57,493 bases of DNA from Candidatus Omnitrophota bacterium (GTDB lineage Bacteria > Omnitrophota > Gorgyraeia > Duberdicusellales > 4484-171): contig JAIPHA010000006.1 in NCBI GenBank assembly GCA_021735445.1, positions 1-57,493 of the forward strand, in the 5' to 3' direction. How positions within the stretch are numbered: position 1 is the first letter of the stretch; each line of letters starts with the position of its first letter. Below are positions 666 to 53,643 of the stretch, one piece after another. A program made the position numbers and the translations under genes. Below the pieces are notes generated by a model. That model made no database searches, was not told where the DNA came from, and was given only the letters and a program-made list of their open reading frames with translations.

Positions 666-1905
666 AAACCGCCTTTTTGCCCAGCTCCTCCTCTATCCTT
701 AAAAGCTCATTGTATTTAGCCACCCGGTCTGTACGGGATAAAGAACCCGTTTTAATCTGGCCGGCTGATGTCCCAACCGCCAGATGAGATATTGTCGTAT
801 CCTCTGTCTCTCCCGACCTATGGGAAATTACAGCAGTATAACCGGCTGCATGAGCCATATTTATTGCCTCTATAGTTTCGGTTAAAGTTCCGATTTGATT
901 TACTTTAATCAGGATTGAATTAGCAATATTTTGCTCAATTCCTTTTTTTAATCTTTTTGTGTTGGTTACAAATAGATCATCGCCTACCAGTTGTATTTTT
1001 TCTCCCAATTTCCTGGTAAGCTTAAGCCAACCTGGCCAATCCTCTTCGTATAAGCCATCCTCTAAAGAAACTATGGGATATCTTTTACAAATTTTTGCAT
1101 AAAAATTAACCATATAATTTACATCCCTGTTTTTGCCTTCAAAAAAATATTTTCCATCTTTGTAGAATGAGCTGGCAGCTGAATCAAGCGCCAGGTAAAC
1201 TTGACGGCCGGGAATATAGCCGGCTTCATCTACCGCTTTCAAAATAAGCTTTAAGGCTTGTTCATTGCTTTTTAATTCAGGCGCAAACCCGCCTTCATCT
1301 CCAACCGACGTAGAAAGCTTTTTCGACTTTAATATTGACTTAAGTTTTTGAAATATTTCACAAGATGCCTGCAAGGCTTTCTTAAAAGAACTAAAGCCGG
1401 CCGGCGCAATCATGAATTCCTGAATGTCTAAATTATTATCGGCATGCATTCCCCCGTTTATAATATTCATAAGAGGAAGAGGCAAAATTTTTGCTTTTGA
1501 TTTTCCCAGATAATTATAAAAAGGCTTGTTTTCTGATTTTGCGGCAGCTTTAGCTACAGCAAGGGATACCCCTAATATCGCATTAGCGCCTAACTTTTCT
1601 TTACTTTCTGTGCCATCAAGCTCTATGAGAAGTTTATCTATTTTTCTGTAATCAGGAGCCATCCCTTTAATCTTTGGGGCTATCTTCTGATTAACATTTT
1701 GAACCGCTTTTTCAACACCTTTACCGAAAAATCTTTTCTTAGTTTTATCGCGCAGCTCTAACGCTTCAAATTCACCGGTCGATGCTCCCGAGGGGACAGC
1801 TGCCCGGCCCAAAGTTCCCTTGCTTAATAAAATATCTACCTCTACTGTCGGATTTCCGCGTGAATCAATAATTTCTCTTGCCTTAACTGCCTTAATTTTT
1901 TCCAT
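631..1905 (-). CDS. eno: Enolase
   Basis: [50 protein letters not shown]; start trimmed to ATG at 1905 (MEKI), which follows an SD-like GGAGAAGGTG. Confidence 0.98.
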
Positions 1906-15557: not shown

Positions 15558-15595
15558 TATAAATTAGGTTGATTGAAGGTTCCCACTCATTGCGA

Positions 15596-15658
15596 GCGGA
15601 AAATGCCAGTCTATAAGTAATTGGTTAACAAGGGCTTATAAATGAGGGAAACGTCCCC
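15596..15658 (-). repeat. Single copy of a ~63-bp REP/MITE-like composite repeat
   Basis: Ungapped 47/63 match (hand count) to 52151-52213; begins GGGGACGTTTCCCTC immediately after the DUF192 stop codon. Confidence 0.85.
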
Positions 15659-16027
15659 TTATTTTATGAGGGTGGAGGTTAGAGGTGTTATTTTGATTTT
15701 GTCGCCTATTTGAGCTTTAACTTGGCTGATTTTGGCTGAAGGCAGCTCAATAGTAACGTAGGCGCCTGGGCAAAAAACCGCTCTCCAGGGAGGCAGGGAA
15801 TGGACTATCCGCTTTACCGCCATCTGCTTATTTAAAAATATAATATCGATGGGAAAACGCATAAAAAAAGTATGTATCGAAGGGGCTTGATAAAAAATAA
15901 GGGCTTGATTTGTTCCTATTTTTTTCCTAAACATTAAACCCCAAAGCCTCAAAAAAAATCCGGAGGCAACCTGGGCAGAACTGACTAAATCTATTTCCTT
16001 AGTTTCATTTATTATTTTAAACTTCAT
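15659..16027 (-). CDS. DUF192 family protein
   Basis: R.WGLMFR, IHTFFMRFPIDIIFL, PW, IELP pattern. Confidence 0.85.
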   Translation of the reverse strand: MKFKIINETKEIDLVSSAQVASGFFLRLWGLMFRKKIGTNQALIFYQAPSIHTFFMRFPIDIIFLNKQMAVKRIVHSLPPWRAVFCPGAYVTIELPSAKISQVKAQIGDKIKITPLTSTLIK

Positions 16028-51255: not shown

Positions 51256-51957
51256 TTAGTTTAATGATTCTTTCAAAATTGAAATATTTTTATCTAAAGG
51301 CTCTATATATTCCCGGGGCGCGCCATGTTTTTTATAAACACGCCTCTGTTGTTTTACCGCCTCCAGGCCCGATTTAATAGTTTTTACCCCATAACTGCTA
51401 GCTGAGCTTATATCTCCGGCCAAGATAGCGTCAATTCCCCGCCTGGAGTACTCGGCGCTCTCTATATTTTTTTCATGAAATAAGCGTAGTTCCGCAGGAG
51501 GCTGCAGTTGCTTTAGCTGGTCAACAATCCCGGAAAGTACCTCCTGAGATTCCCGCATGAGAGCCTGAAAGTTTTCTATATTATTACCTTGTACCATTTC
51601 TGCGCTTTTCTGGTTTAATTCATCCATATACTTTTTATTTTTCTGATTAATGGACTTCATCTTTTTTATATAAGGAAAAATTTGGTTATACCATCGACTC
51701 CATGACTGGCTTGATTGCTGGCTGCCCGAAGAATAATCATTCCGGGATTGAGTTGGTTCTGCCGGCTCGGCTTTAATACCGGCTATCTCATCACGGTAAT
51801 AAGTCAGCGGTACTCCGGAAAAATCAACCTTGATGTACTCAGCGGTCTCTTCAATAATATTGCCTTCTATTTTTTTACCTGACTTCAGCGTAATAATTTC
51901 GGCTGGTAGAGAGGGTAAAAAACAAAGCAAAACAAAAACTATAAATATTTTTTTCAT
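51256..51957 (-). CDS. Hypothetical secreted protein
   Basis: Signal peptide; small N-terminal beta domain (ITLKSGKKIEGNIIEE...YYRDEI), S/Q linker, helical C-terminal region; SD AGAGGA. Confidence 0.75.
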   Translation of the reverse strand: MKKIFIVFVLLCFLPSLPAEIITLKSGKKIEGNIIEETAEYIKVDFSGVPLTYYRDEIAGIKAEPAEPTQSRNDYSSGSQQSSQSWSRWYNQIFPYIKKMKSINQKNKKYMDELNQKSAEMVQGNNIENFQALMRESQEVLSGIVDQLKQLQPPAELRLFHEKNIESAEYSRRGIDAILAGDISSASSYGVKTIKSGLEAVKQQRRVYKKHGAPREYIEPLDKNISILKESLN

Positions 51958-52070
51958 CTATCCTCTATTTTAAACGATAATTAATATTTATCCACTAAAT
52001 TATAGCATATAAATTATTCCTTATCCAACCAGCTAACCAATAACAGCGTCAAGAATTAAACCCCTATAAA

Positions 52071-52213
52071 GGGGACGTTCCCCTAGTTTACAACTAATTG
52101 TTCCGCAATGGTTTATAAAAGCGTATTTTCTAAACAAAAGAATTATTATAGCGGAAAATATCGTTTCATAACCTATTGAGCATCAAAGTCTTATAAACGA
52201 GGGAAACGTCCCC
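52071..52213. repeat. 143-bp REPIN/MITE-like inverted doublet of the ~60-bp composite repeat
   Basis: Left arm 52071-52130 vs reverse complement of right arm 52154-52213: 44/60 ungapped, 20/23 at the termini (GGGGACGTTCCCCTAGTTTACAA / GGGGACGTTTCCCTCGTTTATAA). Confidence 0.85.
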
Positions 52214-53643
52214 TAAATTCTTAAACAAGAGGATTTTCGCTTTAGGAATAAGATTATTGCGCTAGATAAAAGAAAATAATAGACAAAAATGCCTTGGGGA
52301 GAAAAGGAATAGGAAAAATAAGAATAAGAAAAAGAGCCAAAAATTTTTGCTAAACCTTGAAAGATATAAACTAACCAGGATAAAACTGCTCCCAGGCTTT
52401 TAGCAAAAAAAGCTAAAGGAGATATTATTAAAAGCAATAAGTTCAAAAGAAGAATAAAAGTAAATATGGGAATTAAAATAATATTATACAAGATGCTCAG
52501 CAAATAAATTTTTCCGAAATAAAATGATACAACCGGTAAAGTAAATACAGTCACAAAAAAAGAACAAAGAAAAATTTGTTTTAAGTAATTAATCAAAAGG
52601 TTGCTTTGCTGCTTATAGGGGAAAATTTTAAACCCAATGATAATTCCAAAAACGGCTAAAAAGGAAAGCTGAAACCCAATATCATAGATAATAGTTGGTG
52701 AAAACAATAAGAGAATCATGCCAGCCATGCCCAATGAATTTAAAACATCAGTTCTTCTTTTGATAAAAAAACTAAAAGCAAAAACAAGGTACATGATAAC
52801 CGCTCTCTGAGTTGAAGGCCTAAAACCGGTAGCAGCAACATAAAAAACAAGAAAAAACGATAGAATAAAAAGTATCGTCCTAAAGTTTACATTAAAAAAT
52901 CTTAAAAAATAAAACAAAATCAAAGAAATTAAACCAACATGCAAGCCGCTGATTGCTAAAAGATGAGAAAGGCCGGCATTTTGTATAAAACGCTTCTCCT
53001 GCCCTACCAATTCTTTTCTTCCCAAAAATATTGCCGCAAGAAAATTCCTTGCCTTAAAACTGCAATTTTGCTTAAAAACACCGAGACAATAGTTGTTAGC
53101 CCGCTTGACTGCTTTCTCCCAAAAAGACAAAGGCATTTTTTTTAACAAAGCCTTTCTTTTAACCCAAATATAATAAAATTCTTTACCGTAATAGTTGCGT
53201 TTAGCTAACTTTGCCCTGAATTGATATTTATTCAGGTACTCCATTTTTTTAGAGTAATCGATAACTTTTGCCTGAAAATCTTGCCGGTGACCCCCGGCCC
53301 TTATAACCTTTGCTAAAAAAGTATTTTTATTATCTTTTTTCTCAGGTAAGGAAATAACCTTTATTATAATATTTTGCCTTTTGCCAAAAAATATATCTTT
53401 TTGGTTAAAACCAGAAGCAATAAATAATAACGCGCCCAAACAAATAATCAAAAAAGAAATAGCTAGCTCTGAGAATAAAACTTTATTTTTTTTAGATAAA
53501 AAATAGGCCAGGAAACCAGATAAAACAAAAAGAAGGCTAAATAAAAAATATGAGGAAAACAAACTGCCTAAAACAATACCGATTAAAAGAAATACAAAAA
53601 TAAAAAAGTTAAATATATTAGCCAATTGTTTATGTTGGTTCAT
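52213..53643 (-). CDS. comEC: ComEC/Rec2 competence channel (no C-terminal metallo-beta-lactamase domain)
   Basis: AGLSHLLAISGLHVG, PS..RA.IM, DIGFQLSFLAV, multi-TM. Confidence 0.92.
   Translation of the reverse strand: MNQHKQLANIFNFFIFVFLLIGIVLGSLFSSYFLFSLLFVLSGFLAYFLSKKNKVLFSELAISFLIICLGALLFIASGFNQKDIFFGKRQNIIIKVISLPEKKDNKNTFLAKVIRAGGHRQDFQAKVIDYSKKMEYLNKYQFRAKLAKRNYYGKEFYYIWVKRKALLKKMPLSFWEKAVKRANNYCLGVFKQNCSFKARNFLAAIFLGRKELVGQEKRFIQNAGLSHLLAISGLHVGLISLILFYFLRFFNVNFRTILFILSFFLVFYVAATGFRPSTQRAVIMYLVFAFSFFIKRRTDVLNSLGMAGMILLLFSPTIIYDIGFQLSFLAVFGIIIGFKIFPYKQQSNLLINYLKQIFLCSFFVTVFTLPVVSFYFGKIYLLSILYNIILIPIFTFILLLNLLLLIISPLAFFAKSLGAVLSWLVYIFQGLAKIFGSFSYSYFSYSFSPQGIFVYYFLLSSAIILFLKRKSSCLRI

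Follow-up and report, generated by a model that had tools for sequence, protein, structure and literature searches.

REPIN-RAYT systems were reportedly described by Bertels and Rainey in 2011, and Messing is said to have presented in 2012 the E. coli TnpA-REP protein with REP/BIME (structure 4ER8). Such systems combine a transposase gene flanked by two inverted repeats with gene-less inverted doublets that are able to fold as hairpins; the repeats are intergenic, there is one cognate gene copy, repeats and gene co-vary between lineages, and many copies occupy the same sites in sister species (Nunvar 2010, PMC2817692; Bertels 2017, PMC5581495). In TIRtrons, according to Di Nocera, De Gregorio and Rocco (2013, PMC3733652), a RAYT-like Y1 gene is flanked by long TIRs and not by GTAG REPs, many of these TIRs start with GGGGWSAS, and TIRs are also dispersed as singles and dimers. 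Quentin et al. (2018, PMC6006769) equate the TIRYTs with subclass 2.1 of TnpA-Y1, which carries a C-terminal HTH (Bac_DnaA_C, HTH_23, HTH_28).

We analysed a 57,493-nt stretch (hereafter the window) of contig JAIPHA010000006.1 from a Candidatus Omnitrophota bacterium (assembly GCA_021735445.1). The genome from which it comes is referred to as G000 and six congeners as G001-G006. The repeat unit found in the window is very probably the long TIR of a RAYT-like HUH/Y1 transposase of single-stranded DNA; the inverted doublets would then be gene-less miniatures of the REPIN/TIRtron type, because inverted units bracket an HUH/Y1 gene in congeners, and the singleton would be half an element. Elements of the REPIN/TIRtron kind are already known, and the Omnitrophota family is a further example; in the literature searched, RAYT or REPIN is nowhere combined with Omnitrophota, and TIRYT is mentioned in three papers only. 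It adds a well-resolved RAYT/TIRYT-type repeat from a little-studied phylum.

The system most closely matches the TIRtron/TIRYT description, sharing the gene layout and the single and dimeric TIRs described in PMC3733652. Compared with GGGGWSAS, as given there, the start of the unit, GGGGACGT, agrees at six of eight positions and that of the wider clade, GGGGACGG, at seven of eight. It differs from TIRtrons in the make-up of the TIR, which spans 64-65 nt and contains another three fixed blocks, and in its phylum, Omnitrophota. It also differs from subclass 2.1 as characterized in PMC6006769, since a Pfam scan of the transposase (P0001; E ≤ 5) returned Y1_Tnp and a weak ACT_4 only, the C-terminal HTH domain being undetected.

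Apart from the copy number of the gene, the traits listed above for REPIN-RAYT systems recur as well; G006, the only genome that holds the whole gene, has one cognate copy. However, the unit lacks a GTAG (or CGTC) tag, its palindrome is AT-rich and imperfect instead of GC-rich and 20-40 nt long, the two arms of a doublet are kept different, and the copy number is low (∼30 per genome). Structurally, the modelled transposase comes closest to E. coli TnpA-REP and has the HUH and catalytic Tyr residues, whereas sequence identity is 16% with no match in PDB at the sequence level, and the target of TnpA-REP is a REP hairpin with the GTAG that is missing here. With IS200/IS605 elements and PATEs, the family shares HUH/Y1 chemistry, the lack of target-site duplication and small non-coding derivatives, but it has inverted, similar ends where those elements have distinct left and right subterminal hairpins, and both the fold match and the score of the IS200 model are weaker (see below).

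The repeat unit in the window and in its genome

The three copies lie where the original prediction had placed them, with GGGG at 52071 (+), 52213 (-) and 15658 (-), and reading of the sequence at both sites gave the palindromes as it had written them (Table 1). A repeat search of the window returned a direct pair (15595-15664 and 52150-52219; 70 nt, 74%) and an inverted pair (52070-52130 and 52154-52214; 61 nt, 74% complementary, 23 nt apart), and the 13-nt start motif GGGGACGTTYCCC, allowing at most one mismatch, matches three times against a shuffle mean of 0.05, a count reached by 0 of 100 shuffles. A length of ∼60 bp had been proposed; the unit turned out to measure 64-65 nt and to include a conserved inner TTTTCCG and one or two conserved A before GGGG.

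Table 1. Coordinates of the repeat units and their parts in the window
Feature	Position	Strand	Evidence
Left arm of inverted doublet	52069..52133	+	nhmmer family profile 52069-52130, E 2e-13
17-nt spacer between inner ends	52134..52150	.	sequence reading
Right arm of doublet	52151..52215	-	nhmmer 52214-52151, E 1.5e-16
Singleton unit, B-type arm	15596..15660	-	nhmmer 15660-15597, E 7.9e-17
Terminal motif, here GGGGACGTTCCCCTA	52071..52085; also 52199-52213 (-), 15644-15658 (-)	+	
Spaced palindrome AYAA-N4-TTG-N5-CAA-N4-TTAT	52090..52116; also 52168-52194 (-), 15613-15639 (-)	+	
Inner motif TTTTCCG	52152..52158; also 15597-15603 (-)	-	column statistics
Small terminator-like hairpin, CCCC-loop-GGGG then T-rich tail	52061..52074	-	terminator scan

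The spacer of the doublet corresponds to the site of the transposase gene in the full element of congener G006 (locus L041). In the left arm the inner motif (52126-52132, +) is degenerate and reads TTTTCTA. Both window elements overlap a stop codon itself: the first bases of the right arm supply the TAG (52213-52215) of a ComEC-like ORF (52213..53643, named by eye), and the singleton, whose orthologue in G006 (L063) matches at 92% over the unit, overlaps the TAA (15659-15661) of ORF 15659..16027. A scan of the window at Rfam gathering scores found two tRNAs only and left the repeat unmatched.

The terminator-like hairpin is built from the last bases of the element and its flank. A C-run, often TAACCCCT, stands 3-12 nt outside the unit in 17 of the 137 units collected across the genus and can pair with the GGGG of the unit; on the other strand, C-run and GGGG give a CCCC-loop-GGGG hairpin followed by T-rich sequence. 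A 233-aa ORF (51256-51957, -) sits between the doublet and a BamD-like gene (named by eye); when the comEC loci of five congeners were searched by tblastn (E 1e-3), this ORF gave no match. The BamD-like gene comes directly after comEC in G001 and G002.

The genome G000 comprises 1.17 Mb in 37 contigs (84% complete, 36.7% G+C). It contains 35 matches to the start motif (at most one mismatch), against 2 for a backwards control, and three of the 35 are chance matches without the rest of the unit, as judged by eye. The family profile was built from 32 own units, which align without any gap. An nhmmer search with this profile recovered 34 units at E ≤ 5e-9, the remaining 39 of the 73 rows being weak and, for the most part, hits to the palindromes of these units on their other strand. 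Fifteen inverted doublets (134-167 bp) and 4 singletons account for the 34 units, so further copies exist and the dispersed inverted-doublet arrangement claimed from the window holds for the genome. Doublets always have their GGGG ends outward and their TTTTCCG ends inward, and the consensus of the unit is A, GGGGACGTTTCCCTC, n, TTATAA, N4, TTG, N5, CAA, N4, TTATAAA, N6, TTTTCCG.

A simple ORF call places every one of the 19 elements in intergenic DNA, with tandem neighbours for 14, convergent ones for 3 and divergent ones for 2; 11 are situated at most 16 nt behind a stop codon. Because many copies are found directly behind stop codons and have T-rich flanks, termination of transcription or stabilisation of mRNA 3' ends may be a further role, which would be a side effect. 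Annotators can mask these ∼135-bp elements, by which MAG assemblies are broken and stop codons overlapped. Near tRNA-Leu(GAG), at a site where G006 carries a full doublet, G000 has a unit truncated to 47 nt, the end of which is 19 nt behind the tRNA (G000:C1:61442-61589; L002 1367-1449).

A transposase gene lies between two inverted units in congeners

In congeners, the transposase gene is located exactly between two inverted units. On contig C39 of G006 (L041), units at 1091-1154 (+) and 1841-1778 (-) bracket the ORF 1150-1713 (-), which codes for 187 aa; the motif matches are inverted and 732 nt apart, and the stop codon of the ORF overlaps the inner motif of one unit. The protein matches Pfam Y1_Tnp (E 5e-14, 52.9 bits, cut-off 23). 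Among NCBIfam models, REP_Tyr_transpos scores highest (62.7 bits) without reaching its cut-off of 80, and transpos_IS200 reaches 21.6 bits against a cut-off of 55. Across an alignment of 35 relatives, H63 and H65 of the HUH motif and Y123 never vary. For the AlphaFold model (pLDDT 94.7), the solved fold that matches best is that of E. coli TnpA-REP bound to a REP hairpin (4ER8; E 6.5e-9, TM 0.66/0.74), followed by the IS608, ISDra2 and IS200 transposases (TM 0.39-0.48); a phmmer search against PDB gave no match at E ≤ 0.01. An orthologue in G004 (∼80% identity) is split over two contig ends (C54, C82), with units on both sides. A RAYT-type enzyme had been among those suspected from the window, and the bracketed HUH/Y1 gene of G006 is probably of that type; together with the dispersed doublets, it supports the proposal of a non-autonomous mobile element.

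G006 has one copy of the transposase (100%), its next match being 37% identical, and G004 has the one split over contig ends plus a fragment. No transposase match above 40% was found in G000, G001, G002, G003 and G005 (all assemblies, those of G004 and G006 included, are 76-93% complete). The cognate enzyme is lacking in the window, as had been stated, and a close one is also lacking in the rest of its assembly (84% complete), which counts against the transposase explanation, as do the REP_Tyr_transpos score below cut-off and the lack of a PDB relative by sequence. In G005, many near-identical copies coexist with the lack of a close transposase in the assembly, a further point against it; either the gene is unassembled or another enzyme acts there.

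Three Y1_Tnp paralogues of G000 are 33-40% identical to the cognate enzyme. The best of them (G000:C28:24961-25494, 40%) has no units around it and a single GGGGACGGTTC, the short end motif of the clade, downstream and on one side only, and GGGGACGGTTC is not dispersed in G000; this paralogue was rejected as the cognate enzyme on these grounds. The others are at C10:124121-124588 and C36:38050-38352, with a fragment at C17:6293-6460. In G004, 14 matches were counted.

Distribution and age of the family

The 15-nt start motif occurs in five of the six congeners (3, 12, 34, 32 and 32 matches), with 0 matches in G002 and 0 in 34 genomes of 32 other genera (40 relatives searched in all); among the genomes searched, the family is restricted to one genus. 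A further 105 units (108 nhmmer hits) were extracted from 63 congener loci, cut in the register of the profile and not aligned, and they line up gap-free by eye. With the 32 own units, this gives a set of 137 units (134 distinct); across the genus there are 56 doublets.

Many copies of G000 share sites with sister species. At 13 sites of G006 with recognisable flanks in G000, reading found 10 intact units, 1 truncated unit, 1 remnant and 1 stretch of unrelated DNA; in G000, a remnant is left at the C29 site and unrelated DNA occupies the C34 site. Downstream of comEC, G006 has the window doublet, G005 a half-decayed version, with half an element left, and G003 a remnant. The doublet is absent from G001, G002 and G004, where gene order is partly different, G001 and G002 having another order downstream of comEC. 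Comparison of empty and filled sites in congeners gave no clean pair, the sites being diverged or with remnants. At the C36 site, there is a doublet in G003, a 57-nt short form in G001 and nothing in G000, and the surrounding bases are too diverged for the target to be defined. The short form (L105 192-259, G001:C28) has kept both end motifs and lost the inner parts.

A neighbour within the genome at ≥95% identity exists for 0 of the 32 own units and for 22 of 31 in G005. The family looks old in G000, since its assembly holds neither a cognate transposase nor near-identical copies, and young in G005; in G000 it is probably inactive.

The ends of the element are the points where other copies diverge: contigs bearing other copies part from the window exactly at 52069/70 and 52214. 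The doublet itself is unchanged in contigs of three more lake-water runs, which come from the study of the probable source and are therefore not independent. One contig skips 52094-52190, a weak sign of excision because its shorter side has 25 letters only. In one contig of oil-field run X5, from another habitat and another study, the ∼145-nt element is inverted between the same flanks at the window site, with ∼32 other letters next to the comEC end.

End motif, inner module and alternative explanations

We considered 69 related transposase loci with full flanks, from relatives at 36-55% identity (Omnitrophota, Elusimicrobia, several CPR groups, Planctomycetes-labelled MAGs and others). At 40 of them, GGGGACGNTTC (at most one mismatch) is present in inverted orientation on both sides. 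After this motif, most ends of the clade continue with TATTT or TCTTTT, neither of which can pair with GGGG; the conserved feature is therefore the sequence and not a hairpin. GGGGA-CGT-TYCCC, put forward as a conserved hairpin, does not hold as such, as most ends of the clade cannot form it and one unit by itself gives no stable fold (DNA, -4.6 kcal/mol, z = 0.34, with 124 of 200 shuffles folding at least as well).

Recognition by the transposase would be through AA-GGGGACGTTTC, the outer motif that stays conserved throughout the protein clade, and single strands would be cut and rejoined there. The inner part (palindrome and TTTTCCG) would constitute an accessory recognition module specific to the sub-clade, probably read base by base and not kept as a helix, and the doublets would move or be copied in trans. 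A target-site duplication was seen in 0-1 of the 56 doublets for k ≥ 3 and boundary offsets 0-3, no more than with mismatched partners. The end motif GGGGACGNTTC and the in-register accessory module offer substrates for a first biochemical test of a TIR-type Y1 transposase.

Of the potential base pairs in the palindrome, only those between fixed positions (24-46, 25-45 and 31-39) are present in nearly all units, and 26-44 and 29-41 pair poorly. The paired fraction of the four N4 pairs is 0.52 against a column-shuffle mean of 0.55, the observed value being reached by 976 of 1000 shuffles, and the result is unchanged with 74 clusters at 85% identity; the N4 spacers had been supposed to lack compensatory covariation, and none was detected. 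Whole doublets do fold (RNA -56.7 kcal/mol, z -8.1; DNA -27 kcal/mol, z -5.9). At variable columns, agreement between the two arms of a doublet is 0.32, below the 0.44 for arms drawn from separate doublets. Two arm types, A and B, can be distinguished; type A is similar to the element end that lies 3' of the transposase gene, and type B adjoins the upstream stop codon in six of the eight classifiable own doublets, by eye and on few, non-independent copies. A perfect long hairpin is not maintained in the doublets.

A sister family was found in the L119 genome (transposase 55% identical), with 49 motif matches, many of them as ∼133-165-nt doublets. Its consensus keeps, at the same unit positions, the terminal block, AA 24-25, TT 30-31, CAA 38-40, TT 45-46 and, at 58-63, TTTTCC. 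As the same blocks stand in the same register, the accessory module travels with the transposase sub-clade. Orthologous units were compared in 27 pairs; differences affect 2.8% of sites in the terminal block, 4.9% in TTG and, for the other parts, 11-18% in CAA, TTATAA, TTATAAA and TTTTCCG and 32-40% in the spacers, a comparison that overstates constraint because the congener copies were found via the terminal motif.

The core of the palindrome, AA-N4-TT-N7-AA-N4-TT, with its fixed bases at unit positions 24-25, 30-31, 39-40 and 45-46, is thus in register in two transposase lineages, shows no covariation of base pairs and was kept at shared sites while the spacers drifted. It might be a duplex site for a dimeric protein (the transposase or one of HU/IHF type), the element being kept for seeding such sites, although we hold this to be rather doubtful. 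If this were the case, a few dozen protein-bound or bent sites would stand behind stop codons of a streamlined 1.2-Mb genome, and a transposase acting on double-stranded ends would differ from the hairpin recognition of TnpA-REP and IS608; only then would a new kind of biology be involved. Whether the transposase or a host protein reads the spaced palindrome is a mildly interesting question.

BIME-1/RIP elements carry IHF sites in E. coli. In a similar way, the palindrome could chiefly serve as duplex DNA that a host protein binds or bends, and the element would spread such sites behind genes; a candidate is the single protein of the HU/IHF family, for which G000 has one gene, at C2:34334-34600. 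We consider this unlikely, and it is compatible with the transposase explanation. The N4 pairs without covariation, the lower agreement of arms within a doublet, the register shared with the sister family, the orthologous pairs (motif blocks differing at 3-18%, spacers at 32-40%) and the CAA-N4-TTR in each half of the palindrome argue for such a site, but the bias of the orthologue comparison weighs against it, decayed copies exist, and in two lineages the module accompanies the ends that belong to the transposase gene itself, a fact that recognition by the transposase fits equally well. The full IHF consensus, WATCAANNNNTTR, fits 17 units forward and 9 in reverse out of 137, and an IHF site was set aside as the identity of the palindrome, being a weak rival only.

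It is quite improbable that doublets are primarily RNA-level features, that is, bidirectional intrinsic terminators or 3' stabilisers selected for that function, with mobility secondary. This reading can draw on the long hairpin that a doublet forms, on the positions behind stop codons and the mostly tandem context, on outer flanks that are A-rich in unit orientation and therefore T-rich after the hairpin, and on the terminator-like site at 52074-52061. However, compensatory changes that preserve the hairpin were not seen, the two arms are kept different, Rfam gives no match and 2 of the 19 elements have divergent neighbours; that the units are homologous over 64 nt and linked to a transposase shows spread by copying and not convergence. 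Terminal inverted repeats and a palindrome with a central spacer could likewise suggest a MITE derived from an insertion sequence of the DDE type, or else a site for a tyrosine recombinase as in dif/Xer, the latter a link drawn in the original prediction. Both can be regarded as extremely improbable, given that target-site duplications are lacking, that HUH/Y1 is the only gene found between units, and that in the 11-5-11 palindrome the fixed bases occupy the outer and inner edges, a layout apparently unlike the order of dif. The TIR of a RAYT-like HUH/Y1 transposase is the reading that we retain for the unit.

Fragments of the terminal motif (∼11-24 nt, starting with GGGGACG) recur in tandem 23-45 nt outside a full unit, for example at G000:C16:13406-13440, at L043 1362-1385 and at L202, L206 and L215 (G042). 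They are seen in both repeat families and beside transposase genes, and may be the footprint of repeated cutting and joining at the end motif.
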